A stretch of DNA of 64,000 nt from an uncultured Alphaproteobacteria bacterium (GCA_944391615.1 CALXUE010000002.1:57485-121484); one strand, 5' to 3'. Numbered from the stretch's first letter, positions 17,353-58,172 are shown. Program-made: numbers and translations. Notes: a model not told the origin generated them from the sequence alone.

Positions 17353-17783
17353 TAAAAAGACAAGGACAAATCAGCAAAATTTCAGGCCAAGAACTTTACA
17401 TCAGCTTCACACAAAGCGCCATGTGCGCCCATTGCCAAATCAAAGAAAATTGCCTCAGCAGCGCCCATCAAAAACGCGAATTAAAAGCACTCGTTTCCAA
17501 TCCTGCTGATTTTCAAATCGGTGAAACGGTAGAGATAGAAATAAGTACTCTCAATTCAACTTATGCCCTATTACTCGGATACGGACTTCCTCTAATAGTG
17601 CTGCTAGGCGTATCTTTTTTATGCAGTATGGCAAAATTAAGTGAAAACACTAATGCTTTAAGTTCAATCGCCGCAGTCATAATCTATTATATCTGGCTAA
17701 GCTTTTATAAGAAAAAACTTGAAAAAAAGTTTCACATAACTGTGCATAAAATCGCATCGACAAGCAAAATTGGGTGTAATTGA
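17349..17783 (+). CDS. rseC: RseC/MucC family protein
   Basis: SAMCAHCQIKENC, GYGLPL, two TM helices. Confidence 0.8.
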   Translation: MIKRQGQISKISGQELYISFTQSAMCAHCQIKENCLSSAHQKRELKALVSNPADFQIGETVEIEISTLNSTYALLLGYGLPLIVLLGVSFLCSMAKLSENTNALSSIAAVIIYYIWLSFYKKKLEKKFHITVHKIASTSKIGCN

Positions 17784-17851
17784 TAAAAAAACCTTTGAGA
17801 AGAAAACAAAGGTGGTATGATTGCCCAGAATAAAAGAGAAAAGAGGTAAAA

Positions 17852-18697: not shown

Positions 18698-20015
18698 AAC
18701 CTTTCCAATGGGCGGAATACACATAGACAAGCACAAAATCACCAGCCACAAAGCAATAATAGATGCCGGTTTGCCGGAATATGTTTACATTCCGATAAAG
18801 CAACATATTGGAGCACCGGCCAAAATTCTTGTTCAAAAAGGAGACAAGGTAAAAGTCGGTACTTTGTTGGCAGATGCTGACGGGCTTGTATCTGCCGACA
18901 TTCATTCTTCAGTTTCGGGTGAAGTCGTAAAAATAGAAGACATCGTCAATGTTGATGCCTATTTGACACCGATGATAGTCATAAAAGTAGAGGGTGATGA
19001 ATATGAAAAGAGCATTGACCGCACACCTGATATTATCAAAGACATAACCTTAAGCCGTGAAGAAATCATTCAACGTATAAGAGAATCAGGAATTGTCGGC
19101 ATGGGCGGAGCCGGATATCCAACGCCGATAAAAACCACCATACCTGAAGGCAAAACCGCCGACACCTTAATTATCAACGGCATTGAATGTGAGGCATATC
19201 TGACCGCCGATGACCGCTTGATGGTAGAGCACGCGGAAGAAATAATTATCGGAGCCAAAATTCTCAATAAGGCTTTAGGAATACAAAACGCCATCATCGC
19301 CATAGATGAAAACAAGCCCGAAGCCATTGAAAAAATGCAAAGTTTGTGTCGTAAATATGTTGGCGTCAATGTTGCCGTCTGTGAGAGCAAATATCCTCAA
19401 GGAGCCGAAAAACAATTAATTAAAGCCATTACCGGCAGAGAAGTCCCGTCAGGAAAACTTCCGATAGATGTTCACTGCATTGTGCAAAATGCCGGCACAA
19501 CATTTGCCGTTTATGAGGCTGTCCAAAAGCATAAACCTCTATACGAAAGAATTATTACCGTCTCAGGCGATGAAGCTGCCGAAACACCCCAAAATTTCAG
19601 AGTAAGAGTAGGGACTCCAGCCTCGTTTTTAATCAAACAAGTTACCAAACATCCCAAAAAGATTGGCAAAGTTATATTTGGCGGAGCCATGATGGGAATA
19701 TCTGCTGTTAATATGGAAGCCCCAACCACCAAATTAACATCAGGCATTTTGCTCTTAACAGACAAAGATGCCAACAAACCCCAATCCAGCGAGTGCATTC
19801 GCTGTGCCCGCTGTGCCGATTTCTGCCCCATGGGCTTGCGGCCATATGCCATAGCAACGGCTTTAAAGAATCATGAGCTATCGGAATTGGGAGGATTACA
19901 TACAATGGACTGCATAGAATGCGGCTCTTGCTCATACATTTGCCCAGCCAGAATTCCTTTATTGGATTATTGCAAGCTTGGTAAAATGGAAGTCAGAAAA
20001 CAACTTAAGAAATAG
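18687..20015 (+). CDS. rnfC: Rnf complex subunit C
   Basis: QHIGAP, GIVGMGGAGYPT, YPQGAEKQL, CIRCARC/CIECGSC. Confidence 0.95.
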   Translation: MKTKTFPMGGIHIDKHKITSHKAIIDAGLPEYVYIPIKQHIGAPAKILVQKGDKVKVGTLLADADGLVSADIHSSVSGEVVKIEDIVNVDAYLTPMIVIKVEGDEYEKSIDRTPDIIKDITLSREEIIQRIRESGIVGMGGAGYPTPIKTTIPEGKTADTLIINGIECEAYLTADDRLMVEHAEEIIIGAKILNKALGIQNAIIAIDENKPEAIEKMQSLCRKYVGVNVAVCESKYPQGAEKQLIKAITGREVPSGKLPIDVHCIVQNAGTTFAVYEAVQKHKPLYERIITVSGDEAAETPQNFRVRVGTPASFLIKQVTKHPKKIGKVIFGGAMMGISAVNMEAPTTKLTSGILLLTDKDANKPQSSECIRCARCADFCPMGLRPYAIATALKNHELSELGGLHTMDCIECGSCSYICPARIPLLDYCKLGKMEVRKQLKK

Positions 20016-20024
20016 AGAAAAATA

Positions 20025-21026
20025 ATGCTAAAGATATCAACAGCACCACACATTAATTCGCCGCAATCAACCCAAAGCATCATGAGAGATGTCATAATCG
20101 CCTTGATGCCGGCCTTTGTCGTTGCTTTATGCGTATTTGGCGTGTCCGCCTTGGAAGTTATAATAACATCCGTGGCCGGTTGCGTCGTGTTTGAATATAT
20201 GATATGCAAATATTTAATGCATATCCAACCCACCACCTGGGACTTATCAGCTGTCGTGACAGGACTGTTACTGGGCTACAATTTGCCGGCCGGTTTTCCA
20301 ATATGGATGAACTTAATTGGCTGTTTTGTGGCAATCGCCATAACTAAAATGGCCTTTGGCGGCATTGGTAAAAACCTGTTTAATCCGGCATTAGCAGGCA
20401 GAGTATTTTTGCTCATATCATTTCCGATGGAGATGACAACATGGCCTAAACCACATATTTTTGACTTTATGAATACGGATATGCAAACCGGCGCGACAAC
20501 TTTAGGCATTTTGAAACATCTAGACGCCGAAACATCAGCCACAGCTTTATCTCGAGCTACCACCAACCAAGAACAACTTCCTGATTATCTGGATATGTTT
20601 TTAGGCAACATAGGCGGGAGTATTGGCGAAATTTCAACTTTAGCCTTAATTTTAGGCTTTATCTATTTGTTGTATAGAAGAATAATCAGCTGGCATATTC
20701 CGGTATATTACATAGCCACTTTTATGATACTAACAACCATCCATTGGTTGCTGACCGGCAGCACGCAGGCCGAACCGATGACTCAACTATTATCCGGCGG
20801 CTTGTTTTTAGGGACCATATTTATGGCAACAGACTATACAACCTCACCGATGTCAAGGCAGGGAAGGATAATTTTTGCCATAGGATGCGGCATTTTAACC
20901 TATGTTATTCGCTTTTATAGTGTTTATCCCGAAGGCGTATCGTTTGCAATATTAATTATGAACGCCTTTGTCCCAATGATAGATAATTTGTGTGTTCCGC
21001 GTGTATTTGGCACAAGGAGAAAATAA
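20025..21026 (+). CDS. rnfD: Rnf complex subunit D
   Basis: FGGIGKNLFNPAL, TGATT, FMATDYTTSP, YPEG. Confidence 0.95.
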   Translation: MLKISTAPHINSPQSTQSIMRDVIIALMPAFVVALCVFGVSALEVIITSVAGCVVFEYMICKYLMHIQPTTWDLSAVVTGLLLGYNLPAGFPIWMNLIGCFVAIAITKMAFGGIGKNLFNPALAGRVFLLISFPMEMTTWPKPHIFDFMNTDMQTGATTLGILKHLDAETSATALSRATTNQEQLPDYLDMFLGNIGGSIGEISTLALILGFIYLLYRRIISWHIPVYYIATFMILTTIHWLLTGSTQAEPMTQLLSGGLFLGTIFMATDYTTSPMSRQGRIIFAIGCGILTYVIRFYSVYPEGVSFAILIMNAFVPMIDNLCVPRVFGTRRK

Positions 21027-21640
21027 TGAAAAAACAACAAGATAAAAAAGATAGTTTAATCAAAATGACCTTGGCTCTGACCCTAATAACGGTTGTCTCA
21101 GCCTTAATATTGGGTTACACATACGAAATTACCAAAAAACCGATAGCCGAGGCCGAAAATCGAGCTGAATTAGCAGCTATTGAGGCCGTTATCGGCACAG
21201 ATTATGACAATAATCCCTATCAGGATAAAATGCTCATTCCGACAAAACACGGCAAAGAAAAGCTAGAACTTTATCCTGCGCGCAAAAACGGAAAAATCAC
21301 ATCATTTGCCATGAAAACGTTTTCAAATCAAGGATTTGGCGGAAAAATTGAATTAATAGTCGGCTTTAATATAAACGGACGTATATTGAATTACCAAATT
21401 CTCTCAAGCAAAGAAACACCTGGACTTGGCTCCAAAATATCAGAAAATAAATTTAAGAGCCAATTCAAAGGATTTGTAGCAAGAACTTCAAGTTTTAAAG
21501 TAACAAAAGATGGTGGAGACATTGACGGTGTAACTGCAGCCACCATCAGCTCCCGCGCCGTCATAGATGCTATAAACCGCGCTTACGGAGCTTATAAAAA
21601 ACTAAATCGGGGAGAAAATAAAAATGAACAAAAACATTAG
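21026..21640 (+). CDS. rnfG: Rnf complex subunit G
   Basis: ETPGLG, IDGVTAATISS FMN-binding motif. Confidence 0.9.
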   Translation: MKKQQDKKDSLIKMTLALTLITVVSALILGYTYEITKKPIAEAENRAELAAIEAVIGTDYDNNPYQDKMLIPTKHGKEKLELYPARKNGKITSFAMKTFSNQGFGGKIELIVGFNINGRILNYQILSSKETPGLGSKISENKFKSQFKGFVARTSSFKVTKDGGDIDGVTAATISSRAVIDAINRAYGAYKKLNRGENKNEQKH

Positions 21641-22223
21641 TATAGAAAACCTAACCCGAGGAATAATCAAAGAAAATCCAACACTGGTCATGTTGCTCGG
21701 AATGTGCCCGACATTGGGCGTATCAACTTCTGCCGAAAACGGATTAGGCATGGGGCTGGCCACTCTGTTTGTGCTGATATTATCAAATTTCGGGATATCT
21801 GTTTTGAAAAATCTCATTCCGGAAGGTGTGAGAATACCTTGCTATATTATTGTAATAGCATCATTTGTTACAGTTATTGAAATGCTCATGGCCGCATGGT
21901 TTCCGGCTTTGTACAAATCATTAGGTATTTACATACCCTTAATTGTCGTTAACTGCATCATTTTGGGCAGAGCAGAGGCTTTTGCATCCAAAAACAATGC
22001 ATTCCAGTCTGTTTTAGACGCTATTGGAATGGGAATAGGCTTTACATTATCTTTAACCGTGCTAGGCAGTATCCGCGAAATTTTGGGAGCAGGGAGCTTT
22101 TTTGGAATTTCGTTGTTCGGAGAAGAGGCCAAAACCATTCTGCTGTTCATTATGCCACCGGGAGCTTTTCTGGCCCTGAGTTTTATGATAATAATGTTTA
22201 ACAAAATACGCGGAGTAAAATAA
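21624..22223 (+). CDS. rnfE: Rnf complex subunit E
   Basis: LGMCPTLGV, IPLIVVNCIILGRAEAFA. Confidence 0.95.
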   Translation: MNKNISIENLTRGIIKENPTLVMLLGMCPTLGVSTSAENGLGMGLATLFVLILSNFGISVLKNLIPEGVRIPCYIIVIASFVTVIEMLMAAWFPALYKSLGIYIPLIVVNCIILGRAEAFASKNNAFQSVLDAIGMGIGFTLSLTVLGSIREILGAGSFFGISLFGEEAKTILLFIMPPGAFLALSFMIIMFNKIRGVK

Positions 22224-22799
22224 ATGAGTTATTTAAGTATCTTTATAGCGGCAATTTTTGTAAACAACATTGTTTTATCACAATTTTTAGGAATATGCCC
22301 ATTTCTTGGCGTTTCCAAAAAAACATCAACCGCACTGGGAATGGGCTTAGCCGTCATGTTTGTCATGACTTTATCTTCCATTGTTACCTATTTGATATAT
22401 CACAATTTTATTATCAAGTATGGCTTAGAGTTTATGACAACGGTCGTCTTTATTTTGGTAATTGCTTCGTTGGTGCAAATAGTTGAAATTATTTTAAGAA
22501 AAGTTTCACCGGCCTTATATCAGGCTCTAGGAATTTTCTTGCCGTTAATCACAACCAATTGCGCAGTTTTAGGAATTGCCTTATTAACAGTACAAAAGAA
22601 TATGGGCTTAACACAAAGTATTGCTTATTCACTTGCAAATGCCATGGGGTTTACTTTAGCAATTGTATTATTTGCAGGTATGAGAGAAAGATTAGCCAAG
22701 AGCAAACTTCCTCAAGCGCTCCAAGGCACGCCGATAGCATTAATCACGGCTGGCCTGTTATCTATGGCCTTTATGGGATTTTCAGGTGTCGGAAATTAA
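22224..22799 (+). CDS. rnfA: Rnf complex subunit A
   Basis: FLGICPFLGVS, LPLITTNCAVLG. Confidence 0.95.
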   Translation: MSYLSIFIAAIFVNNIVLSQFLGICPFLGVSKKTSTALGMGLAVMFVMTLSSIVTYLIYHNFIIKYGLEFMTTVVFILVIASLVQIVEIILRKVSPALYQALGIFLPLITTNCAVLGIALLTVQKNMGLTQSIAYSLANAMGFTLAIVLFAGMRERLAKSKLPQALQGTPIALITAGLLSMAFMGFSGVGN

Positions 22800-22805
22800 T
22801 TTAAC

Positions 22806-23444
22806 TTAAGAGAGTAATGATTTGATTTTTAATATAATTTCATCAAACATTTCATAAGTTAAAACGCCGGTATTAATATTGTATCGAGATGTGTGATAAG
22901 AATCAACCATCAACAGATTATGCTTGTCCAAAGAGTGAACCGCACCATGCTTAAATTTGAGAGCTGACTTTTTATAGCCCAAAACACTTAAAACAGCATT
23001 ATGAGCGATTCCTCCAAGGACAAGAATAATTTTTAGGTTTTTCATAGAGTTAATTTCTGATATTAAGAATTTGCCGCAAGTTTTCACCTCTTCACCGGTT
23101 GGTTTATTTTCGGGCGGTACACAACGCACAGAATTAGTAATTCTGAAATTAATCAATTCAAAACCATCATCTTTACGTTTTTGATAAATTCCTTGAGCAA
23201 AACCATGCTTTTTCAAAATAGGATAGAGCACATCACCGGCATAATCATTAGTAAATGGGCGAGCTGTCTGGTTAGCGCCATGTAATCCGGGAGCCAATCC
23301 AACCACCAAAACCTCAGCATCAATAGAGCCGAAAGGAGGCACGGGACCATTATAATAATTCGGAAATTTCAATTGGTTAGCATGTCTAAATTCAACCAAT
23401 CTTGGACAATAAGAACAATTTTTATCCGGACAAACAAAGCTCAT
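22806..23444 (-). CDS. Uracil-DNA glycosylase family 5 (Fe-S)
   Basis: CSYCPRL, GLAPGLHGANQTARPF, RCVPPENKP, YHTSRYN. Confidence 0.85.
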   Translation of the reverse strand: MSFVCPDKNCSYCPRLVEFRHANQLKFPNYYNGPVPPFGSIDAEVLVVGLAPGLHGANQTARPFTNDYAGDVLYPILKKHGFAQGIYQKRKDDGFELINFRITNSVRCVPPENKPTGEEVKTCGKFLISEINSMKNLKIILVLGGIAHNAVLSVLGYKKSALKFKHGAVHSLDKHNLLMVDSYHTSRYNINTGVLTYEMFDEIILKIKSLLS

Positions 23445-23597
23445 TTTATTTCCTCTATTAAAAAAAATACAATTTTTATGCATAACAGCACTTTAAATTC
23501 TATTTTTATTGATTAAGTAACACAGCGTATCATTCAGTATTTAATGATAACACATATTAATTAATAAAATCTATTTATATATAAATGGAGTAAAAAG

Positions 23598-24176
23598 ATG
23601 AAAAAAATGTTACTTTTAGCGACTTCCGCATGCTTATTTGCCATGAATGCACAAGCAAGTGACATGATGAAAGAAATGAGACCTTATGTTGGTATAGATT
23701 ATGCTTATAGCGATGCAGATATCTCTAAAATCGACAACAAGCAGTATTTTAACCACCAATTCAACACTGGTGACATCAACGTTGGTGTCAGAATGGGTAA
23801 ATACATGGGTGTTGAAGCTTTCTTCCAAAAATCCATGGAAGAAAAGAAAACTGTGTTTAACACCATTAAAACCAAGGCAGACTTTTATGCCTATGGTCTT
23901 GATTTGATGGGATATATGCCTGTTCATGAAAAAATCGAGCTCATCGGAGCATTAGGTGTTGCACAATATGATGTAACAGCCAAAGCACGTAACACTGAAA
24001 CAGGTGCAAAAATTCACAATGATGATAGCGGCTTTGGAATTCGTATGGGAGCCGGTGTACAATATAACATCACCGACAACGTTGCCGTTCGTGCATTAGG
24101 CCGTTACACATGGTTGGATGTTGACAACGTCAACCACTTAAAAGAATTCGTAATTGGTGCAAGATATTCATTCTAA
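23598..24176 (+). CDS. Outer-membrane beta-barrel (OmpA-like transmembrane/porin family)
   Basis: Signal peptide, PYVG, GAGVQYN, C-terminal ARYSF. Confidence 0.85.
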   Translation: MKKMLLLATSACLFAMNAQASDMMKEMRPYVGIDYAYSDADISKIDNKQYFNHQFNTGDINVGVRMGKYMGVEAFFQKSMEEKKTVFNTIKTKADFYAYGLDLMGYMPVHEKIELIGALGVAQYDVTAKARNTETGAKIHNDDSGFGIRMGAGVQYNITDNVAVRALGRYTWLDVDNVNHLKEFVIGARYSF

Positions 24177-24323: not shown

Positions 24324-24671
24324 ATGATTTCACGCTTTCAAACTTATGTTTTAACAACATTTTTTGTATTATTTTTATTAGCCTTGTCATACATGTATAA
24401 CATAACGCCTGTTCTCGATTATGCCGAAAGCGTTTATTATAATGCCCAAAACATATATATATTAATACCAGCACTTATCAGCACGATAGTATTAATGAAA
24501 CAAGGGGGATACTGGCTGTTTATGTTTATCTGCGCCTTAGCTGATTCATTTTACATCTGCTATGATATGGGAGTAGGGATGAGCAATATGAGTTTTTTCA
24601 TCTTAAACATTGTCACCTTTTTAGGAATAGCCTTTTTGATTAATACCGTAATCGCCTTAATAAAAGGATAA
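24324..24671 (+). CDS. Small membrane protein
   Basis: GAGG RBS, about four hydrophobic segments. Confidence 0.6.
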   Translation: MISRFQTYVLTTFFVLFLLALSYMYNITPVLDYAESVYYNAQNIYILIPALISTIVLMKQGGYWLFMFICALADSFYICYDMGVGMSNMSFFILNIVTFLGIAFLINTVIALIKG

Positions 24672-24757: not shown

Positions 24758-25411
24758 GCCTAAAATCAATAACAAATCAGCCTCAAAGAAAAGTAAAAGC
24801 ATTTAGATAAAACAAACACAAAACATAGACAAAACACACAGTTTCAATAAACAAACCATAGACAAAAACAACACATAAATAAAATTATTCAGTAAAATCA
24901 ATAGAATATAGATATTGAAATAAAAACAAAGAGCAGGGTGAAGATAAAAAAACTTAAAAATGATTAAAATAAAATTATTCAATGAACATAACATAAGACA
25001 AAGCCAAGATAATGAGCAATTAGCAAATCAGCCTGTTTACTGAGGAATATTTATTTCTAGACTTCATAAGTTCTATGGATACTTAAAACATACATATTTT
25101 ATATAAGGAGAATATCAGTGCCGCATACATAAAATGCCAATATTTTATAGAAGAACTCTATTATATATGCAGGAATCTTTGTAACAATTATTTTCTTATA
25201 AATCATATATTCTATAACACTTATATTCTTATAACTCAAATTTTCAATATTGCATATTTTTAATAACACACATTATCTTATGACTAGTAATTTCATAACA
25301 ACACCTATATTCAAATCCATACAAAACACATACGTTTATCATGAAGCATACATACGGCTACTTTGGAACATAAAAATGCCTATATTTTTCCCCTCTTCTC
25401 CATAACACGTT

Positions 25412-25439
25412 TTGTCGCATAATATATATTCAGAGGCTA
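25412..25439 (+). other. attL: dif-like site (XerC arm, spacer, degenerate XerD arm)
   Basis: TTGTCGCATAA-TATATA-TTCAGAGGCTA. Confidence 0.88.
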
Positions 25440-25750
25440 TATCATCAACAGCCAGAAAACAAGACAAAGCAATACGACTACTTGACAAAATAATAAATAA
25501 ATATTTCAAAATATTTGAATTAATACAAAACGAAAAAACAAAATCAAGACAAGCACTAATACACAACAATAAGAACCTAAAAAGTCTATTAATATACAGA
25601 CTTGTAACAAAATACTACTTACGCGAAAGATACGGAACGATTAATCCGACAGAACTTTCAAACCTCAAAGAAAAAACACACAAAAAAATAAAAAATATAA
25701 TGTCCGAAATCGGGCAAAACATAAAAAAAATAAACGAAATCAAAATCTAA
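25412..25750 (+). CDS. Phage hypothetical basic protein whose 5' end overlaps att (ATG restored on excision)
   Basis: 112-aa ORF MSHNIYSEAI... starting at the TTG of attL; the equivalent position in attR is ATG with an upstream RBS. Confidence 0.6.
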   Translation: MSHNIYSEAISSTARKQDKAIRLLDKIINKYFKIFELIQNEKTKSRQALIHNNKNLKSLLIYRLVTKYYLRERYGTINPTELSNLKEKTHKKIKNIMSEIGQNIKKINEIKI

Positions 25751-25771
25751 TTAATTAAAGGAGTAAAAAAA

Positions 25772-26068
25772 ATGGAAAATTCAGCTAACAAAACAGAAAA
25801 ATCAAAAGTTGTAAATAAAATGAGATTTTACGCGATATTTGACAAGAAAAGCGAAAAATTTTTCACACCAAACGTAAAACCAAACAATGCATGCGCTTTG
25901 CGTGACTTAGAAAGTTTCTGCAAAAGCAAAAACAGCATAATCGGACAATTTCCGAAAGATTTTTCAATGTATTATCTCGGATATATTGACGAAGACAATG
26001 GGGAAATGTTCGGAGAAAAACAATTAATAGGAGAGGCACAAGACTATGTCGAAATCGAAAACAACTAA
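25772..26068 (+). CDS. Microvirus nonstructural protein VP5
   Basis: FYAIFDKK...FPKDFSMYYLGYIDEDNG; AGGAG RBS. Confidence 0.8.
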   Translation: MENSANKTEKSKVVNKMRFYAIFDKKSEKFFTPNVKPNNACALRDLESFCKSKNSIIGQFPKDFSMYYLGYIDEDNGEMFGEKQLIGEAQDYVEIENN

Positions 26069-26147
26069 TTTACTCAATGAAATAGTAAAATATTTAGGTT
26101 GGGTAATCGTCGCAGTGCAAGAACTTGTAAAAGTAATTGCAGAATAA
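26046..26147 (+). CDS. Small amphipathic phage peptide (33 aa)
   Basis: Manual translation MSKSKTTNLLNEIVKYLGWVIVAVQELVKVIAE; GGAGAGG RBS; ends at terminator. Confidence 0.5.
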   Translation: MSKSKTTNLLNEIVKYLGWVIVAVQELVKVIAE

Positions 26148-26181
26148 AAAAAAAGGGCGTGATTTTTCACGCCTTAATTTT
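26146..26181. terminator. Phage hairpin terminator
   Basis: A run-gggcgtga-ttt-tcacgcctt-aatttt. Confidence 0.5.
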
Positions 26182-26210
26182 AATAACAAGAAAGGAAAGG
26201 AAAAAATGTC

Positions 26211-26294
26211 ATGCAAAACTTTAGTAGAACAGCCATTAAAACAAAAAAAATCAATGTCAGACCGAAAGTCTCTTTCGGCGGGAAAAGATTTTAA
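26211..26294 (+). CDS. Microvirus DNA-binding protein VP8 (27 aa)
   Basis: Manual translation MQNFSRTAIKTKKINVRPKVSFGGKRF; resembles the gokushovirus VP8 F.RTA.KTK.IN..P...GG.R. pattern; below the ORF-track cutoff. Confidence 0.75.
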   Translation: MQNFSRTAIKTKKINVRPKVSFGGKRF

Positions 26295-26351
26295 GATATT
26301 AAAAAAAATCAAAATACCTACTTTATACATCAATTTCGAAAGGTTAGGATA

Positions 26352-26816
26352 ATGAAAATTGAAAATACAACTTATGATAGAACTAAAAAAACGCCGTTTA
26401 ACGGTTGGAATAAAATTAACAAATGTTGCATCACTTATGATGACAATTCTAAAATTCGTAGAAATGGCAAAGAAATAAGTCTTCAAGAATTTATAAATGC
26501 AAATAACCAAGACTGCACAATTTACCAAGTATATGACAAATACATGGGAAATATGAAATTGACACAACAAGCACTTTGCAACATTTCGCATAAAGTAGCA
26601 GACGAATTGTCAGGAATGGACTTGGCAACAGCATTGAATACGATGAACAAAGCTGAACAAGCTTGGAATAATTTACCACAAGCAATTAAACAAGAATTTG
26701 GAAACAGTGTCCAAGCGTTCCAAAAAAACGGTTTACAATGGGCAAAAAATAAAATTGCAGAATTTAACAAACCGAAACAAAAAGTTACTGAAGAAAAAAA
26801 AGAAAATAAGGAGTAA
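26352..26816 (+). CDS. Microvirus internal scaffolding protein VP3
   Basis: DLATALN..AEQAWNNLPQAIKQEFGNS VP3-like motif; immediately upstream of VP1. Confidence 0.7.
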   Translation: MKIENTTYDRTKKTPFNGWNKINKCCITYDDNSKIRRNGKEISLQEFINANNQDCTIYQVYDKYMGNMKLTQQALCNISHKVADELSGMDLATALNTMNKAEQAWNNLPQAIKQEFGNSVQAFQKNGLQWAKNKIAEFNKPKQKVTEEKKENKE

Positions 26817-26822
26817 TACACA

Positions 26823-28511
26823 ATGGCAAGAAACGAAGAAATCTCAGTTTATGGAATACCAGAAGTATACAAAAACCGCTATAATCACCAATATACATGT
26901 CGGAGAAAAACAACCTTCAACATAGGCGATATCGTACCGATTTATACCTCTATTTTGGTACAACCGGGAGATACAATCTCACTCAATGCACGTTCATTCT
27001 TTAGATTGACGACCTCACTATTTCCGCCTATGGACAATTTAACCGCGGACATATTCTGTTTTGCAGAAGATTGGCAAAATGTTTGGGAACACACAAAGGA
27101 ATTCTGGGGAGAAGATGAAGCAACACCATTTGATGAATTACCAGAATACACCGTGCCACAAATAGAAATAACGCCAACAGATGAAATTTTGCATAATGAT
27201 ATTTTGCATCACATATCATTACCACAAATGAAAGCAGACGAAGCCGCAATTCCTGAAATAACTCGCGTAAATAACATATCCGTAGAAGCTTTATCATATA
27301 GAACGTATATAGATATTTATAATAGATTTTTCCGAGACCAAAACTATATAACAAAATATGACCTTGAAACAGGAGATACACAAACAAAACCCGAAAATGG
27401 AACATGGGCAGGCAAAAAAAGAGCAAGAACTCTTTTAAAAGCGGCCAGATTGCACGACTATTTCTCAGGAACACCAGAAGCTCAAAAAGGTGACCCAGAA
27501 ACATTGCCTCTTGGAACAAGCGCACCAATCATAGGAACAGGGACAATCATAGGAAACGGAAAACCAGTAACTTGGACAAATGCTGACGGGACAAGTTCGA
27601 CTAATATTGCAACCGCGGCCTCAGGTGACGGGGAATTAAGACTAGCACCGTCATCCGGCTTGATTTCAACTATGTACGCTCCAACAGACGCAGCAGACGC
27701 ATACTTAAAACTTGATATGACGAACACTCAAGTTGACCTTGCGAATGCAGTCGCGAGTACCTTAAACGCTCTAAGGCTTGTAACAGCCAACCAGCACATT
27801 AAAGAAGAGTTAATGTGGTACGGCTCACGATTTGAAGAAATCATCTTTAGCCAATGGGGCGTTAGCATGGACGCGACCTCATTCCGTATTCCTGAATATC
27901 TTGGCGGAAAACGTATTTCTTTAAATATGGACACTGTTTTACAGACATCAAGCACAGACGCCGAAAGCCCACAAGGTAACGCGGCAGGATATTCCGTGAC
28001 TTTTGATGAAGACCATCTATTCACAAAATCATTTAAAACATGGCAAATTTTGATGATTTTAGTAGTGGTAAGACAAGACCACACATACTCATATGGCGTA
28101 GCAAATCAACACCTTAAAAAACGCAAATTTGACTTTTATTGGGATAAATTTGACGGATTAGGCGCACAGCCAAGAAGTAAAGCCGAACTTGCATTAACTG
28201 GAACAGATTCCGATAATGACACTTGGAACTTTGCGCCAGCTTGGAGAGAATACATCTCAGAAGTTGACCGCGCAACGGGTTTAATGGTGCCAGGGGTAGA
28301 AAACAGCCTTGCAAACTACACCTATAACGATGAATACACCAGTGTACCAAACTCAGGCGAAGAATGGATTAATGAAATTCCGAACTATGTCGACCGTACC
28401 TTGGTTGTACCATCATCAACAACAGACCAAATTATGGCTGATTTTGTTTTTGAAATCAACAAAACATCTATTATCAAAAATTACAAATTGCCAGGATTGG
28501 ACAAGCTCTAA
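26823..28511 (+). CDS. Microvirus major capsid protein VP1
   Basis: KTTFNIG...VQPGDT, PPMDNL, YNRFFRDQN, HDYF, RIPEYLGG, TKSF, AWREY; 562 aa. Confidence 0.93.
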   Translation: MARNEEISVYGIPEVYKNRYNHQYTCRRKTTFNIGDIVPIYTSILVQPGDTISLNARSFFRLTTSLFPPMDNLTADIFCFAEDWQNVWEHTKEFWGEDEATPFDELPEYTVPQIEITPTDEILHNDILHHISLPQMKADEAAIPEITRVNNISVEALSYRTYIDIYNRFFRDQNYITKYDLETGDTQTKPENGTWAGKKRARTLLKAARLHDYFSGTPEAQKGDPETLPLGTSAPIIGTGTIIGNGKPVTWTNADGTSSTNIATAASGDGELRLAPSSGLISTMYAPTDAADAYLKLDMTNTQVDLANAVASTLNALRLVTANQHIKEELMWYGSRFEEIIFSQWGVSMDATSFRIPEYLGGKRISLNMDTVLQTSSTDAESPQGNAAGYSVTFDEDHLFTKSFKTWQILMILVVVRQDHTYSYGVANQHLKKRKFDFYWDKFDGLGAQPRSKAELALTGTDSDNDTWNFAPAWREYISEVDRATGLMVPGVENSLANYTYNDEYTSVPNSGEEWINEIPNYVDRTLVVPSSTTDQIMADFVFEINKTSIIKNYKLPGLDKL

Positions 28512-28783
28512 TGGCTGAAAGTTTGGATTTATACATAGCCGAAATTGATGAGTTGGCGGGAAAAGTCCAAGCAGACTTGGTGCGTGCAGTAGACAACTAT
28601 TGCACGCTTTACCAAGCAATGCAAGACATTAAACCAACTGTCAAAAAAGAAAAACCGAACTATGACAAAGAAATCATAAAAAAGCTACAAAATGCAAGCT
28701 ATTCGGACAATTTGTTTAATAAAAAAATTCTTAAAAAGAAAGGGTTGAAAAAATGGGATTATTTAGCTCTATTGGCGGAATAA
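28511..28783 (+). CDS. Phage hypothetical protein
   Basis: 90-aa ORF coupled to the VP1 stop (TAATG). Confidence 0.55.
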   Translation: MAESLDLYIAEIDELAGKVQADLVRAVDNYCTLYQAMQDIKPTVKKEKPNYDKEIIKKLQNASYSDNLFNKKILKKKGLKKWDYLALLAE

Positions 28784-29418
28784 TTAACGATTTGACAGGC
28801 GTATCATCAAGTGCAAATCAAGGTTTTAAATATTCACAAGCTTTATCAAACCTCAATTTCGAACAACAAAAATATTTTGCACAAAATGCACACCAAATGG
28901 AAATGGCAGACCTCCAAAAAGCAGGACTCAACCCTGCATTAACCGCAACCGGTGGTTCAGGTGCTTCCGCAAGCGGGGGAGGAGGCATAGCCGGAAATGG
29001 TGGATCGCCAACGGCGAACATATTCGGTATTATGTCAGAATTAGCAGGAGTATTTAACGCAACTAAACAAACCAATGCAAACACCGAGCTACAAGGCGCA
29101 CAAGCAATTAAAACGCTTGCAGAAACAAAAAATCTACCTCAAGAGCTTAAAAATGACACTATGCGAGCACTTGCCGACAAAATGAACGCCGAAACAGGCG
29201 CAACAAATGCAAAGACAAACCAATGGAACGCATGGAACAACGAATATAACAATATGACTAATAGATTGCAATATCTACTTGATGAAAAACGCGCAAATGC
29301 TGGAAAACTCGGCGAATGGGTAGGAGCTGAAAACGCATCTAAAGTAACACGCGGAAAATATTCATTACCGAGAATGTTTTTCGACCTTCTATTCGATGGG
29401 CAAATTCCAAAATTTTAA
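28753..29418 (+). CDS. Microvirus DNA pilot protein VP2
   Basis: Gly-rich N-terminus, AHQMEMADLQKAGLNPAL signature, coiled-coil repeats. Confidence 0.88.
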   Translation: MGLFSSIGGIINDLTGVSSSANQGFKYSQALSNLNFEQQKYFAQNAHQMEMADLQKAGLNPALTATGGSGASASGGGGIAGNGGSPTANIFGIMSELAGVFNATKQTNANTELQGAQAIKTLAETKNLPQELKNDTMRALADKMNAETGATNAKTNQWNAWNNEYNNMTNRLQYLLDEKRANAGKLGEWVGAENASKVTRGKYSLPRMFFDLLFDGQIPKF

Positions 29419-29544
29419 AACACAAACAAAAATTAATTGAATTAATAAAATAAAAAGAAAAATGCAAAAAGGAATAAAACAGCGAGCCAAAAAATTGCCA
29501 ATAGTCCAATTAAAACCGCGTGAAATATCTTTTTTGTTAAACAT
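29389..29544 (-). CDS. Antisense single-TM phage peptide (51 aa; second copy 30109-30264)
   Basis: Manual translation MFNKKDISRGFNWTIGNFLARCFIPFCIFLFILLIQLIFVCVLKFWNLPIE; GAGG 7 nt upstream. Confidence 0.45.
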   Translation of the reverse strand: MFNKKDISRGFNWTIGNFLARCFIPFCIFLFILLIQLIFVCVLKFWNLPIE

Positions 29545-29576
29545 GTCAAAACCTCAGTCAATAGGAGTTAAAAGTA

Positions 29577-29732
29577 ATGTACGGAGCAAATAATAACACA
29601 AATAATTTATACGGTCAAGACAATGGATTTGATAGAATTAAAAGCGGAATTAATAACGCAAAATCTATTAAATCGGGCTATGACAAAATCAATGACATAG
29701 CTAAATCAATATTAGCAATGATTGCAGGTTAA
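29577..29732 (+). CDS. Small phage protein (51 aa; second copy 30297-30452)
   Basis: AGGAG RBS; MYGANNNTNNLYGQDNGFDRIKSGINNAKSIKSGYDKINDIAKSILAMIAG. Confidence 0.55.
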   Translation: MYGANNNTNNLYGQDNGFDRIKSGINNAKSIKSGYDKINDIAKSILAMIAG

Positions 29733-29880
29733 AAAAATGACCCAAAAGGACAGGGTATAAGCTTATACACCGATATTTTTAATTAATCGGTGTCACTGGG
29801 CGGTATAGTATCAAGGCGCACAAGCAATTAAAACGCTTGCAGAAACAAAAAATCTACCTCAAGAGCTTAAAAATGACACT

Positions 29881-30138
29881 ATGCGAGCACTTGCCGACAA
29901 AATGAACGCCGAAACAGGCGCAACAAATGCAAAGACAAACCAATGGAACGCATGGAACAACGAATATAACAATATGACTAATAGATTGCAATATCTACTT
30001 GATGAAAAACGCGCAAATGCTGGAAAACTCGGCGAATGGGTAGGAGCTGAAAACGCATCTAAAGTAACACGCGGAAAATATTCATTACCGAGAATGTTTT
30101 TCGACCTTCTATTCGATGGGCAAATTCCAAAATTTTAA
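29881..30138 (+). pseudogene. Duplicated C-terminal fragment of VP2
   Basis: Identical to the last 85 aa of VP2; created by the duplication. Confidence 0.75.
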
Positions 30139-30514
30139 AACACAAACAAAAATTAATTGAATTAATAAAATAAAAAGAAAAATGCAAAAAGGAATAAAAC
30201 AGCGAGCCAAAAAATTGCCAATAGTCCAATTAAAACCGCGTGAAATATCTTTTTTGTTAAACATGTCAAAACCTCAGTCAATAGGAGTTAAAAGTAATGT
30301 ACGGAGCAAATAATAACACAAATAATTTATACGGTCAAGACAATGGATTTGATAGAATTAAAAGCGGAATTAATAACGCAAAATCTATTAAATCGGGCTA
30401 TGACAAAATCAATGACATAGCTAAATCAATATTAGCAATGATTGCAGGTTAAAAAAATGACCCAAAAGGACAGGGTATAAGCTTATACACCGATATTTTT
30501 AATTAATCGGTGTC

Positions 30515-30552
30515 ACTGGGCGGTATAGTATCAAGTAGACCAACCGCCCAGT
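30515..30552 (-). other. Putative rolling-circle origin hairpin with CTACTTG/ATA nick motif in the loop
   Basis: Stem actgggcggt/accgcccagt, 18-nt loop, minus strand reads CTACTTGATA (30538-30529); just upstream of rep. Confidence 0.7.
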
Positions 30553-30596
30553 TTTTTTTCCTAAAAAAAAATCCAAAAAAAGAGCAGGGGGCGCAA

Positions 30597-31724
30597 ATGG
30601 TTTGTTTATGTCCTAAAGTCGCATACCAAAGGAAATTTTATCCAATAGACGGCAATATATCCGAAAGAAACTTAAAAAGATTAAATAAAATATCATTTCA
30701 ATATCACAGAGGTTGGAAACAAATATTAATTCCATGCGGAGAATGTCCAGCGTGCAAACTTGCAAAAGCTAACGAATGGGCTGTCAGAATTAACAACGAA
30801 GCAGAAACATGGAAAAATAAAGGAATTTTTGTCACCTTAACTTATAATACACCAAATTTGCCACTTACAAAAGACGGATTAATGACCCTACAAAAAAGGG
30901 ACATGCAACTATTCAAGAAAAGATTAAGAAAATACATATCGAAACATAACGAGGGAATAACCGAATGGATTAATCCCAAAAACGGAAAAATTGAAAAACC
31001 GATTCGAACTTTCGAATGTGGAGAATATGGGCCGACAAAAGGAAGACCACATTATCACCAAATCATATTTAACTGGATACCAAACGACCTAGTCGAGAAA
31101 GAAATATCAAAAGACGGATATCCACTTTATAAATCAAAAACACTACAAAAAATATGGGGCAAAGGCTTTGTTTTGATAGGAATGATAAGCTTTGAAAGTG
31201 CCAGCTATGTTGCAAGATATACCATGAAAAAAGCAGGACTTGCAAAAACAAAACGTGTCTATTATGACGCTTGCGAATACAATGAAGAAACCAAAAATTT
31301 TGAAATGAAAACAAAATACAAAACAGAAAAGGGGGAGATAGAACCAGAATTTATAACGATGTCAACATCGCCAGGGATTGGATATTGCTATTTTATAAAA
31401 AATCAAGAAAGTATTATAAAAAACAATGGGTTATTGATAAAAGTTAAAGGAAAAGTAAAATTAAAATCAATACCACGATATTATAGAAAAATCATGGAAC
31501 GCCAAAACTGGAAAAAATACGAAAAATGGAAATACGAAAACCAAAAACAAGCAGACGAAAAACAAAAAAAACTTGTCAACAGCTACAAACTGCCAGAAGA
31601 AATGATTTTCGAATTAAAAGTGCAATTTGTAAACAATATTTTTCTTGACACAATTAGAAATAAATTTAACTTATTGAAAAGAAACAATATTTTATATGAC
31701 GAAGAAACAAAAGAAGATGAATAA
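30597..31724 (+). CDS. Microvirus replication initiator VP4 (HUH Rep)
   Basis: PCGECPAC, FVTLTY (motif I), CGEYG..RPHYH (motif II), YVARYTMKK (motif III). Confidence 0.95.
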   Translation: MVCLCPKVAYQRKFYPIDGNISERNLKRLNKISFQYHRGWKQILIPCGECPACKLAKANEWAVRINNEAETWKNKGIFVTLTYNTPNLPLTKDGLMTLQKRDMQLFKKRLRKYISKHNEGITEWINPKNGKIEKPIRTFECGEYGPTKGRPHYHQIIFNWIPNDLVEKEISKDGYPLYKSKTLQKIWGKGFVLIGMISFESASYVARYTMKKAGLAKTKRVYYDACEYNEETKNFEMKTKYKTEKGEIEPEFITMSTSPGIGYCYFIKNQESIIKNNGLLIKVKGKVKLKSIPRYYRKIMERQNWKKYEKWKYENQKQADEKQKKLVNSYKLPEEMIFELKVQFVNNIFLDTIRNKFNLLKRNNILYDEETKEDE

Positions 31725-31728
31725 TTGA

Positions 31729-31920
31729 TTAAGTTATACACAATCGCTACAGCGCATTGTGAGGTGCGCGCTCATGTGCATAACTTAAAAAAAAAATAAT
31801 TTTATATATTGACAACAAAAAAAATTTGTGATTCCGTATAATCACGGACAAGGTGAATTTGCTCTTTTTCACCTTGTCTATCATAAAGAGTTAACAAAAA
31901 GAGCAAAGAAAGGGCTAAAA
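31729..31920 (+). promoter_or_regulatory. Structured phage intergenic region and leader ending in an RBS before the attR ATG
   Basis: Several inverted repeats, TTGACA 31809 and TATAAT 31837 (22-bp spacing, non-ideal), AAAGGG before ATG 31921. Confidence 0.5.
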
Positions 31921-31948
31921 ATGTCGCATAATATATATTATGTTAAAT
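31921..31948 (+). other. dif: dif site (attR), canonical XerC/XerD target
   Basis: ATGTCGCATAA-TATATA-TTATGTTAAAT; XerD arm identical to E. coli dif; KOPS converge here. Confidence 0.93.
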
Positions 31949-32002: not shown

Positions 32003-33595
32003 CTATATTGCAGCTTTAATCAATTCTTGAGTATAAATATGCTGCGGCTTTTCAAAAAGCAACTTTGTCGGCTGACACTCAACAATTTTTCCTTGATTCA
32101 AAACAGCCACCCAATCAGACATAGCACGAACAACACGCATATCATGCGTAATAAAAATATAACTAAGCTGCTGTTCATTCTGAATACGTTTTAACAAGCT
32201 TAAAACCTGAGCTTGAGTCGTCACATCAAGCGCCGATGTCGGTTCATCCAAAATCAAAATTTTAGGTTTCAAAATTAAACTTCGTGCTATGGCAATCCTT
32301 TGCCGCTGTCCACCTGAAAATTCAAACGGATACTTATCTAGCACATCGGCATCTAACTCAACTGATTTCAAAATATCAATAACTTTACGTTTTTTTTCAG
32401 CCTTTCCCATTTCCGGAAAATGAACATTTAATCCTTCCGCAACAATCTGCTCGACAGTCATTCTAGGATTAAGCGACGTATAAGGATCTTGAAACACAAT
32501 CTGCAAATTACGCCTAAACTGTTTATTATCAAAGCTTTCTGCAGACTTTTGCAATAATTTTATTTCTCCGCCAGCCTTAGGGTTAAGTTTGGCCAATGCA
32601 AACCCCAAAGTTGTCTTTCCTGAACCAGATTCTCCGACAATACCCAAACACTCACCTTGTTTTAATATCAAATCAACCCTATCCAACACCGAATGATAAG
32701 TCAAAACCCTTCCCCAAAAATTCTTCTTTTCCGGATACTTAACAGTAATATTTTTTCCTTCTAAAACAATAGGTTGATTATCATTTTGCAACAAGTTACT
32801 CTTTTTTTCATCAAGTTTCACCGCTTTCAAAAGAGATTGAGTGTAGCTTTGTTTTGGCGCATTAAAAATTTGTTCAACTCCGCCCTGCTCTACGATTTGC
32901 CCATTTTTCATCACACACACACGGTGGGCAATTTTTCCGACCAAGTTCAAATCATGGCTGATAAACAAAATCGCCATACCCATTTTTTGCTGTAATTTCA
33001 ATAACAAATCAATAATTTGTTTTTGCACGGTAACATCCAAAGCCGTTGTTGGTTCATCAGCAATCAATAACTTCGGCCGATTTGCGATTGCCATGGCAAT
33101 CATAACACGTTGCCTTTGACCTCCGGACAACTCATAAGGATAAGCCTTAAATTTTTGTTTAGCTTGTTTAATTCCCGTTGCATTCAAAAGGCGTATTGCC
33201 TCACGGACAGCTTGTTTTTCCGTCATTTTTTGATGTAATTGTATAGCTTCGACAATTTGTTGCCCAACTCTATGTAACGGGTTAAGAGAAGACATCGGTT
33301 CTTGAAAAATAAAAGCCACATCCCCACCCCGCATTTTCTGTAATTGAGCATCATTCATAGTCATAATATTTTGATTTTCAAACAAAATTTCAGATTTATT
33401 TTGATAATCAGCCCCTTCGACTAATTTCAAAACAGACAAAGCCGAAACCGACTTACCAGAACCTGACTCACCCACCAACCCTAAAATTTCACCGTTTTGA
33501 ATGGCAAAATTAACATCATGAACAACCGTTTGACCATTAAAAGAAATTGTCAAATGCCTGACATCAAGCAAAATATTATCTTTAATATCCGCCAT
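32003..33595 (-). CDS. yejF: Peptide ABC transporter, dual ATPase (YejF-like)
   Basis: Two GESGSGK and two SGGQRQR motifs. Confidence 0.85.
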   Translation of the reverse strand: MADIKDNILLDVRHLTISFNGQTVVHDVNFAIQNGEILGLVGESGSGKSVSALSVLKLVEGADYQNKSEILFENQNIMTMNDAQLQKMRGGDVAFIFQEPMSSLNPLHRVGQQIVEAIQLHQKMTEKQAVREAIRLLNATGIKQAKQKFKAYPYELSGGQRQRVMIAMAIANRPKLLIADEPTTALDVTVQKQIIDLLLKLQQKMGMAILFISHDLNLVGKIAHRVCVMKNGQIVEQGGVEQIFNAPKQSYTQSLLKAVKLDEKKSNLLQNDNQPIVLEGKNITVKYPEKKNFWGRVLTYHSVLDRVDLILKQGECLGIVGESGSGKTTLGFALAKLNPKAGGEIKLLQKSAESFDNKQFRRNLQIVFQDPYTSLNPRMTVEQIVAEGLNVHFPEMGKAEKKRKVIDILKSVELDADVLDKYPFEFSGGQRQRIAIARSLILKPKILILDEPTSALDVTTQAQVLSLLKRIQNEQQLSYIFITHDMRVVRAMSDWVAVLNQGKIVECQPTKLLFEKPQHIYTQELIKAAI

Positions 33596-34617
33596 CAACG
33601 CCTCCTTCTCGGATTAAAAGCATCACGAACACCTTCACCGATAAAAATAAGCAATGTCAATAACATAGACAATACAATAAAAATCGTAATTCCAATCCAA
33701 GGCGCCTGTAAATTATCTTTGCCTTGCCGCACCAAATCCCCCAAGGAAGGATAATCAGCCGACAACCCCAATCCCAAAAAATCCAAAGCACTTAACGCCA
33801 CAATTGCATCAGAAAGCAAAAACGGCACATAAGTAATCGTTGCCACAACTGCATTAGGCAAAATATGCTTAAAAATAATTTTAACATTGCTAACACCTAA
33901 AGCCTTTGCCGCTTTAACAAACTCAAAATTACGCGTACGCAAAAACTCTGCACGAACCACCGGAATCAAAGCACTCCACGAAAATAACAGCATAATAAAC
34001 AATAAAGTCATAAAACTAGGAACAAACACACTTGCAACAATTATCAATATAAAAAGCTGAGGTAAAGCATCCCAAATTTCCAAGAACCTCTGCACAAACA
34101 AATCAATTTTTCCACCAAAATATCCTTGCACTGCGCCAATAACAATTCCGATAACTGAGGCAAAAAAAGTCAACACAACCGAAAAAACAACCGAAAGTCT
34201 AATTCCATAAAGGATACGCGCCACAATGTCCCGCCCCTCATCATCAGTTCCCAACCAATGTTGAGCTGAAGGCGGCGTCGGAGTTGGTTTATCCAAATCA
34301 TAATCAACAGAGTTAAAAGAATATGGAATAACAGGCATCACCATCCAACCGTTTTGCATAATTTTTTGCACAATAAATGGATCTTTATAATCAGCCTCAG
34401 TAGCAAAATCTCCGTCAAAATACTCATCCGTATATGTTTGAATAAACGGAAATAAAATCTCTCCTTTATATTTCACAACCAGAGGCTTGTCATTGGCAAT
34501 AATCTCAGCCAAAAAGGACAACAAAAAAATACCAAGAAACAGCACCAACGACCAATAAGCGCGCCGATTTGCCTTAAAATTCTGCCATCGTCTTTGGTTT
34601 ATCTTAGATAAAAACAT
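33595..34617 (-). CDS. yejE: Peptide ABC permease (YejE-like)
   Basis: INQRRWQNFKANRRAYWS, HWLGTDDEGRD, GEGVRDAFNP. Confidence 0.85.
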   Translation of the reverse strand: MFLSKINQRRWQNFKANRRAYWSLVLFLGIFLLSFLAEIIANDKPLVVKYKGEILFPFIQTYTDEYFDGDFATEADYKDPFIVQKIMQNGWMVMPVIPYSFNSVDYDLDKPTPTPPSAQHWLGTDDEGRDIVARILYGIRLSVVFSVVLTFFASVIGIVIGAVQGYFGGKIDLFVQRFLEIWDALPQLFILIIVASVFVPSFMTLLFIMLLFSWSALIPVVRAEFLRTRNFEFVKAAKALGVSNVKIIFKHILPNAVVATITYVPFLLSDAIVALSALDFLGLGLSADYPSLGDLVRQGKDNLQAPWIGITIFIVLSMLLTLLIFIGEGVRDAFNPRRRR

Positions 34618-37029: not shown

Positions 37030-37644
37030 TTATCTTGAATAGTATTCGATAACCAGATTTGGTTCCATCTCGCAAGCATAAGGAATATCAGCAAATTTCG
37101 GAACAAAAGTAAATTTGGCAGTCATTTTTTTGCTATCAACTTCCAAATATCCCGGAAAATCGCGTGTAGTAGATTCCAAAGAGGCAGCGATTAAAGGATT
37201 CTGTTTAGACTTTTCTCTAACTTCAATAACATCACCAACTTTAACCATATAAGAAGGGATATTAACTTTTTTACCGTTAACCAAGATATGATTGTGGTTA
37301 ACAAATTGACGAGCAGCAAAAACGGTCGGAACAAATTTAGCTCTAAACACCAAATTATCCAATCTGCTTTCCAACAAACCAACCAAGTTTTCAGCGGCAT
37401 CGCCTCTTCTTCTGATAGCTTCTGCATAATATTTAGCAAATTGTTTTTCAGAAATATTACCATAAGAAGTTTTTAACTTTTGCTTAGCATTTAATTGCTC
37501 GCCATAGTCAGTCATTTTCTTTTGTCTTGCACCATGCTGACCCGGAGCAGTTTCTCTTTTAACATAAGAAGAATGTTCTTCACCGAAGATAGAAGCTCTA
37601 TAACGGCGAGTAGCTTTTTTCTTAGCGTTTTCAATACTTTTCAT
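37030..37644 (-). CDS. rpsD: 30S ribosomal protein S4
   Basis: PGQHG, LESRLDN, ARQFVNH, IEYYSR. Confidence 0.97.

Positions 37645-57014: not shown

Positions 57015-58172
<1,158 letters not shown>

Follow-up and report, generated by a model that had tools for sequence, protein, structure and literature searches.

In a 64,000-nucleotide stretch of DNA from an uncultured alphaproteobacterium (GCA_944391615.1, CALXUE010000002.1:57485-121484; the whole stretch is called the window below, with positions counted from its first letter), positions 25412-31948 were found to hold a complete gokushovirus-type microvirus genome with all genes on the plus strand. Judged from its sequence and that of its borders, the element is probably a temperate phage that was integrated at the chromosomal dif site by the host recombinases XerC and XerD, leaving a left attachment site (attL) with a crippled XerD arm.

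The prophage and its attachment sites at dif

The window contains two exact copies of the 18-mer TGTCGCATAATATATATT, and no others, at 25413 and 31922. Allowing up to three mismatches on both strands yielded three matches, the third being the palindromic partner inside the right attachment site (attR); by chance 0.15 matches are expected, and three were reached in 1 of 100 shuffles. The two sites are composed as follows.

25412-25439, plus strand: attL, with host XerC arm TTGTCGCATAA, spacer TATATA and phage-derived degenerate XerD arm TTCAGAGGCTA
31921-31948, plus strand: attR (host dif), with phage XerC arm ATGTCGCATAA, spacer TATATA and host XerD arm TTATGTTAAAT

Compared with the host site, attL agrees at 3 of 11 positions in the XerD arm and at 6 of 6 in the spacer. 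The attR site is a canonical dif, its sole departure from the genus consensus being the outermost base of the XerC arm. With the crossover placed in the spacer, the reconstructed phage site (attP) would read ATGTCGCATAA-TATATA-TTCAGAGGCTA and lie in the VP4-VP5 intergenic region, and the reconstructed bacterial site (attB) would read TTGTCGCATAA-TATATA-TTATGTTAAAT.

The prophage unit measures 6,509 bp, or 5,789 bp minus one copy of an internal 720-bp duplication; both values, known here from sequence alone, fit the size of gokushovirus-type genomes (circular ssDNA of ~4-6.5 kb in a T=1 capsid). The core set of genes was found intact and full length by Pfam, PHROGs and the list of open reading frames (ORFs).

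25772-26068, plus strand: VP5 (Phage_ORF5, DNA-binding non-structural protein; PF20577 6e-18, phrog_1670 1.5e-20)
26352-26816, plus strand: VP3, internal scaffolding protein (PF09675 Chlamy_scaf 4e-12, phrog_1642)
26823-28511, plus strand: VP1, major capsid protein, 562 aa (PF02305 4e-86 over 16-558, phrog_514 6e-119)
28753-29418, plus strand: VP2, DNA pilot protein, 221 aa (phrog_8693 2e-18)
30597-31724, plus strand, frame open from GTG 30510: VP4, rolling-circle replication initiator (Rep; PF23343 2e-17, phrog_942 1e-91)

The likely start of VP4 is ATG 30597, which follows a GGAG, since relatives align only from residue 29-30. A Pfam scan of the eight plus-strand ORFs and one minus-strand ORF of the element revealed no integrase or tyrosine recombinase. 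The initial annotation of this stretch had named a gokushovirus-like prophage at the host dif with these coordinates and this attP, intact in XerC arm and spacer and broken in its XerD arm, and had stated that attR leaves the host a canonical dif; gene content, absence of an integrase and site structure bear this out.

The dif motif is unique in the 1.57-Mb, 32-contig host genome, and exactly one match was present in 12 of the 15 genomes of the genus (the prophage's own genome, G000, included), the three genomes without a match being 85-88% complete. The empty site predicted in the initial annotation, TTGTCGCATAATATATATTATGTTAAAT, was recovered verbatim in 5 of the 14 other genomes. Within the genus, base A at dif position 1 is confined to G000, as expected if that base is phage-derived. 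At 6 of the 11 other dif loci, homologues of the left-flank genes, dif and the gene of an ATP-binding cassette (ABC) transporter ATPase follow one another with no phage between; the left-flank genes at these six empty loci encode a porin-like outer membrane protein and/or the 115-aa ORF, and in G014 a uracil-DNA glycosylase (UDG) together with the 115-aa ORF. The empty-site genomes are sister species, 64-69% identical at the nucleotide level across the region of the ABC ATPase gene, and not strains of the same species. Among the remaining loci, one begins 60 nt left of dif and four carry the ABC operon on the left and rpsD on the right, an arrangement also seen, with an identical 28-mer, in two human-gut metagenome contigs. 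Across the genus, either side of dif may carry the ABC-transporter operon (L118-L120, L128, L067 and L071 versus L121-L129), which always points at the site; this two-sided placement looks like an inversion across the terminus. The host genes bearing on the locus and on the identity of the host are listed here.

24324-24671, plus strand: host left-flank gene, 115 aa, syntenic beside empty dif sites in sister species
32003-33598, minus strand: host right-flank ABC-transporter ATPase, syntenic beside empty dif sites in sister species
37030-37644, minus strand: rpsD, alphaproteobacterial marker
57015-58115, minus strand: CcrM, alphaproteobacterial marker

Both markers had been invoked in the initial annotation and were confirmed. 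By CcrM and related metagenome-assembled genomes (MAGs; uncultured Azospirillaceae, Azospirillum, Acetobacter), the host is placed among small-genome gut Alphaproteobacteria, presumably in the group RF32/CAG-239 of GTDB. Exactly two PF00589 tyrosine recombinases were found genome-wide, on contigs C1 and C8 and not on the prophage contig, with XerD as the best-scoring assignment of one and XerC as that of the other (equivalogs TIGR02225 324 bits and TIGR02224 321 bits, both slightly below the curated cut-offs). A host FtsK with gamma domain was likewise detected (PF09397, 1e-27).

Left of the prophage, the large ORFs at 16318-24176 are on the plus strand, excepting the UDG gene (22806-23483); right of it, those at 32003-63558 are mostly on the minus strand. 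Across the prophage, the GC skew drops from values near zero or above to between -0.2 and -0.35. The assignment to the replication terminus is consistent, but not sharp, since the cumulative skew of the whole contig peaks 30-35 kb before the prophage and then forms a plateau up to it. A complete Rnf electron-transport operon (rnfBCDGEA) is located at 17852-22799, ~2.6 kb upstream of the integration site.

Both junctions were recovered elsewhere. Logan contigs of run X1 comprise one leading from host DNA through attL into VP1 and another leading from VP4 through attR into the ABC gene, and a contig of run X9 bridges attR. These contigs come from independent runs, with the prophage ~95-98% identical to that of the window and at the same location. 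In a separate assembly, the gene call for protein P0004 reads from the host flank through attL into ORF112, an ORF that starts inside the attachment site. The runs containing prophage sequence are mostly labelled chicken gut.

The following further features of the element were recorded.

26137-26352, plus strand: small ORF of 71 aa, doubtful as a gene (one weak tblastn piece, E 6e-4, from the G159 prophage; no family match)
28511-28783, plus strand: small ORF, 90 aa, between VP1 and VP2 (no family match; relatives have a small ORF at the equivalent position)
29092-29815, repeated at 29812-30535, plus strand: exact tandem duplication of 724 nt, period 720, head to tail, 100% identity
31725-31920, plus strand: conserved non-coding region with three hairpins directly upstream of attP (six-phage alignment)

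The duplication comprises the 3' end of VP2, a 51-aa ORF (29577-29732, copy 30297-30452) and DNA before VP4, and breaks no gene. It is missing from the ~95%-identical prophage in run X1, where the contig skips 814 nt and has 96 other letters between, and is either a recent event or an assembly artefact. In Pfam, PHROGs and NCBIfam, the small ORFs of 112, 71, 90 and 51 aa gave no family match exceeding the curated cut-off. In the spacer between VP4 and attP (31725-31920; L025 12089-12316; L031 3900-4130), compensatory changes were found in 7 of 31 predicted pairs, and the third stem differs in sequence in the window's phage with its pairing kept. The region may serve as origin of the complementary strand or have a regulatory function.

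ORF112 at the attachment site

One ORF of the element begins within the attachment site itself.

25412-25750, plus strand: ORF112, lysine-rich, predicted three-helix protein of 112 aa, with its sole possible start codon inside the XerC arm

The frame contains no ATG, GTG or TTG besides the XerC-arm codon and one ATG 16 codons before the stop. In the prophage, the start reads TTG and no purine-rich tract, that is, no Shine-Dalgarno sequence (SD), is found upstream; on the circle, it reads ATG, 6 nt after an AAGGG SD, and resembles the start region of VP2. Since integration parts the ORF from its ATG and SD, only the circular form provides ORF112 with proper translation signals. The ATG on the phage side has come to lie at attR, where it begins a frame of 13 codons running into host DNA. 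An open frame of 112 codons was reached in none of 5000 shuffles, from which we conclude that ORF112 is a real ORF.

Close homologues of ORF112 number only five, at 79-98% identity. Residues 7-10, which are encoded by the degenerate XerD arm, are conserved in 4 of the 5, all from other assemblies. No DUF3653, helix-turn-helix (HTH) or other family match was obtained in Pfam, NCBIfam or PHROGs, Pfam returning only a sub-threshold FAP206 match (0.0069), and tblastn against phages gave nothing. A profile of ORF112 found nothing below E 0.027 among 2,581 ORFs of 27 related or reference loci; searched against 1.84 billion representatives, it returned four matches, corresponding to one close homologue, two repeat proteins and one 64-aa protein. 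The AlphaFold model, built from six sequences, is a three-helix bundle (predicted local distance difference test 70, predicted template modelling score 0.42), for which Foldseek gave no match at E<=0.001 in PDB and BFVD; the predicted fold is generic and uninformative. Relatives with an equally degenerate XerD arm (G159, bv505, bv741) have no homologue of ORF112, and their attP-proximal small ORFs gave no domain match above the curated cut-off. DUF3653 was detected neither in the ORFs of the element at E<=0.01 nor in the attP-proximal ORFs of five relatives at E<=0.05. By these comparisons, ORF112 is a narrow ORFan, and the suggestion of the initial annotation that it might act in the manner of XafT, the accessory factor of the Vibrio cholerae satellite TLC-phi, has no support.

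Residues 72-91 of ORF112, with the conserved core ERYGTINPTELSNLKEKTHK, resemble a unit repeated seven times in the 458-aa DUF7487 protein P0006 (PF24308, 1e-93), and the 64-aa protein P0008 also has a ERYGTINPTELSNLKEKTHK-like core. In the host flank, a 51-aa ORF (25250-25405) ends with a TAA stop 7 nt before attL; in P0004, from another strain, that TAA is replaced by Q and the frame continues into ORF112. This fusion is either a gene-caller artefact or a possible route to ORF112 expression in the integrated state.

Proposed route of integration and alternative explanations

In the proposed course of events, the double-stranded replicative form would carry attP in the VP4-VP5 intergenic region, and host XerC and XerD would recombine it with chromosomal dif by a crossover inside the identical 6-bp central region. 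This would leave attR as a fully functional dif for chromosome-dimer resolution and attL without a usable XerD arm. The crippled arm may prevent XerCD, when activated by FtsK, from excising the prophage whenever the cell divides, whereby the lysogen would be stable yet reversible. Such stabilisation would parallel that proposed for the gonococcal genetic island (GGI) and TLC-phi. For GGI, a degenerate XerD arm is described to let FtsK strip off the recombinases and so prevent excision; FtsK-driven excision of mini-TLC constructs is likewise described to be prevented by a degenerate XerD arm, and to be escaped by attP variants deviating from dif (PMC6744903; PMC9226527). Because the entire central region is identical, a complete two-step exchange by XerC and XerD, of the TLC-phi/GGI type, is tentatively favoured over a XerC-only exchange finished by replication. 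In each of the five degenerate-XerD-arm attP sites compared, arm position 2 is T and position 5 is G; the innermost XerD-arm positions one and five are reported to be crucial for integration of TLC attP (Miele et al. 2022, PMC9226527). Taken together, this makes some XerD contact at the cleavage side plausible, the conservation being weak evidence since the five phages are related.

Several observations weigh against integration by this route or against an active prophage. Integration of enterogokushovirus EC6098 is reported to need XerC, XerD and both halves of the phage dif motif, and in E. coli it was abolished by deleting the XerD half (PMC7062461); an arm with 3 of 11 matching positions may, therefore, need a helper. 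Judged by sequence, either recombinase could be the first to act. The 720-bp duplication could hamper genome packaging, or be an assembly error. Neither a joint of 25.4 kb to 31.9 kb nor a back-joint of the circle was found in runs X1, X5, X9 and X11, which are contigs and not reads, so that the missing joint carries little weight. A metagenome scan with the 27-mer dif (82 loci, 80 examined) yielded no conspecific locus and no same-species empty site; it retrieved two distant relatives with ~70% nucleotide identity in the ABC genes. As neither a circular junction nor a same-species empty site was seen, the activity of this prophage copy is unproven.

In run X5, two contigs end and start, respectively, exactly at 31922, the first base of the att repeat, a pattern that would suit, but does not prove, the presence of more than one configuration in the sample (occupied, empty or circular). 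The word depth in this run was 9-15 in the flanks and 2-7 over most of the phage; contig depth is not copy number, so no conclusion on a mixed population was drawn. A Megablast search with the entire element gave no match in 50,697 phage records, a VP1 scan confirmed no relative in genome contigs and gave no pattern match in viral contigs, and the exact 29-mer across attL was not present in viral contigs.

That the locus is a chimera, assembled from a free phage genome and a host contig, might be suspected from a host assembly in 32 contigs and from an exact 724-nt duplication that looks assembler-like; with independent contigs of other runs bridging both attL and attR, P0004 reading from host flank into ORF112 in yet another assembly, and the order of the flanking genes matching six sister-species loci, this explanation, by which the initial annotation would have fallen, is excluded for practical purposes. 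Quite improbable, too, is a decaying, immobile remnant whose left att site has been mutated away. The internal duplication and the failure to see an excised circle or conspecific empty site would suit such a remnant, but all core ORFs are full length, the stretch of ORF112 encoded by the degenerate arm is conserved in four of its five homologues, free circular relatives have similarly divergent XerD arms, and a ~95%-identical copy occupies the same site in another data set.

Among the routes that differ in the part played by the recombinases, the one known from CTX-phi and VGJ-phi, where XerC alone would swap one strand pair and the Holliday junction would be resolved by replication, with XerD at most architectural, is possible, yet rather unlikely. 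It draws on the XerC arm and adjacent spacer being the only attP parts conserved across the sites with a degenerate XerD arm, and on the replication of the phage via ssDNA and dsDNA forms, as in filamentous elements that exploit Xer. Nevertheless, no second, inverted att copy able to form a CTX-like ssDNA hairpin was found with up to three mismatches on both strands of the window, and the central region shows full identity on either side, whereas VGJ-type sites are homologous on the XerC side only. This route would also leave unexplained the sister phages in the host family whose polarity is opposite, the XerD arm being perfect and the XerC arm degenerate. Improbable is a TLC-phi-like reaction in which XerD performs the first strand exchange at a barely bound attP with the help of a phage activator unrelated to DUF3653, for which ORF112 would be the candidate; having its ATG and SD only on the circle, the activator would be switched off by integration, locking the prophage. 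The XerD arm with 3 of 11 matches beside a fully identical central region, the retained T and G together with the two positions crucial in TLC attP (PMC9226527), and a real ORF beginning inside attP would agree with it, and activators outside DUF3653 may exist according to PMC6744903. It is opposed by the lack of any DUF3653, HTH or other family match of ORF112, by its having only five close homologues and four matches among the 1.84 billion representatives, by its generic three-helix fold, and by G159, bv505 and bv741, which do without an ORF112 homologue at equally degenerate arms. Still less likely is the wider proposition that gut gokushoviruses of these small-genome alphaproteobacteria enter dif along a TLC-phi/GGI-like route without a XerD-binding arm, by means of a Xer activator of a new family distinct from DUF3653, ORF112, that integration switches off, fixing the prophage.

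Relatives and comparison with known Xer-dependent elements

Among 3,266 matching phage records, the best VP1 identity was 49%, the top matches being circular 5.8-5.9-kb "bajarodmic" genomes from rodent faeces. The initial annotation had called VP1 divergent, which is true in so far as no record of the phage collection exceeds 49%; in the VP1 tree, however, it sits within known gokushovirus diversity. The window's phage forms the first branch of an eight-member clade (99% support by the SH-like approximate likelihood ratio test), and the prophages of the host's family make up at least three lineages, among which Chp2, phiMH2K and SpV4 are scattered, in a tree of 27 rows obtained by quick search and midpoint rooted, with neither a bullavirus outgroup nor EC6098.

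In three of the five nearest circular GenBank relatives examined, attP is located ~230-250 nt after VP4, with a perfect XerC-arm core, a TATATA or TGTATA spacer and a XerD arm matching at 4 to 8 of 11 positions. PF02305 was found in 9 of 282 genomes of the host's family. The G159 prophage (VP1 47%) has an attL/attR layout identical to that of the window. In the G085 and G178 prophages, the phage XerC arm is degenerate (6/11 and 8/11) and the XerD arm perfect, and owing to this reversed polarity the intact dif stands on the opposite side; the XerC arm is degenerate at the G197 site as well (7/11). One bacterial family, thus, presents two att polarities (L023, L026 and L030, i.e., G178, G085 and G197, versus the window, L025 and L027). 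A dif-like core was present in 7 of 8 IMG/VR relatives; one of the seven has a perfect site, located on the opposite strand. In the prophage of "Acetobacter sp. 46_36" (L029, G052), VP1 is identical to that of IMG/VR contig L142; the motifs flanking this prophage and six IMG/VR relatives have the spacer TAACTC, versus TATATA or TGTATA in the dif of the host's family.

The degenerate XerD arm highlighted in the initial annotation is real, but its singularity was overstated, since phage dif motifs are described to vary most in spacer and XerD arm (Kirchberger & Ochman 2020, PMC7062461). According to the same paper, dif-like motifs also occur where genes end, and another 48 MAGs bear such motifs. 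Gokushovirus lysogeny at dif, variation of the XerD arm, the presence of dif motifs at the ends of genes and a catalogued prophage from the same family are, hence, already known, and the modest additions made here are an almost arm-less attP, a split start codon and both att polarities in one host family. In the literature searched, no paper was found that describes dif integration by gokushoviruses in these alphaproteobacteria; the supplements of PMC7062461 may list related MAGs. On the interpretation favoured here, Xer/dif lysogeny of integrase-less gokushoviruses would extend from Enterobacteriaceae to an uncultured lineage of gut Alphaproteobacteria, with clean junctions and with natural empty sites supplied by sister species. 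Related phages in one host family keep the XerC or the XerD arm of dif, rarely both, which fits selection for one functional and one crippled flank. This natural series of att variants should be useful for studies of Xer activation and of excision prevention, and a clade of "orphan" microviruses from rodent, chicken and human gut gains a host assignment.

Of the systems compared, the enterogokushoviruses, with EC6098 and the E. coli prophages, share with the element the absence of an integrase, the position beside chromosomal dif with one flank a conserved bacterial dif, the core genes VP1-VP5, and dif motifs that sometimes overlap gene ends, as far as described in PMC7062461. They differ in genome size (4.3-4.7 kb, against ~5.8-6.5 kb here) and in host, which here is a gut alphaproteobacterium. 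Other than in the enterogokushoviruses described there, the element has the spacer of dif unchanged and next to no XerD arm (3/11). VP1 falls into a separate clade with rodent-faeces microviruses in the tree, which is without EC6098. By its non-enterobacterial host (CcrM; related MAGs of Azospirillaceae or Acetobacter), the element would lie outside the genus Enterogokushovirus.

The likeness to TLC-phi put forward in the initial annotation holds for site architecture, namely a degenerate XerD arm beside an identical central region, the central region of TLC-phi also matching dif. The attP XerD arm of TLC-phi departs strongly from dif, and the reaction is described as fully reversible in principle, with a functional dif remaining after integration (PMC6744903; PMC9226527). 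Unlike TLC-phi, the element is a microvirus and not a filamentous satellite, and has no XafT/DUF3653 protein. The two inverted att half-sites by which CTX-phi folds its ssDNA are not found here with up to three mismatches on both strands. GGI, as described in PMC6744903 and PMC9226527, likewise has no XafT-like protein; it is a large island and not a phage, and its arm differs only at four outer positions, versus 8 of 11 here.

Closest in VP1 (47-49%) are the Bajarodmic viruses 1048, 505, 741 and 456 (PQ007319, PQ006667, PQ006964, PQ006602), which agree with the element in gene order and size (5.78-5.90 kb) and, in three of four, have a TTGTCGCATAA- or ATGTCGCATAA-type attP after VP4. They are recorded as free circles from rodent faeces without a host, have no ORF112 homologue, and their attP is non-coding. 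Family3_MNTT01000014_Acetobacter_sp_46_36 (Table S1 of Kirchberger et al. 2022, PMC9239249), corresponding to G052/L029/L136, is a gokushovirus-type prophage from a MAG of the same bacterial family; its VP1 is 35-38% identical to that of the window and its att spacer is TAACTC, and the available text of PMC9239249 lists it without discussing dif.

By VP1, VP3/VP5, VP4/VP2 and the grouping of VP1, the element belongs to the gokushovirus-type Microviridae (Family 3 of Kirchberger 2022). It has no recombinase of its own, is located at a single dif, is flanked by dif and a dif-like site, and resides in a host with XerC, XerD and FtsK-gamma. In site and gene content, it would, thus, belong to the integrative mobile elements that exploit Xer (IMEX), with a presumed dependence on the Xer recombinases.

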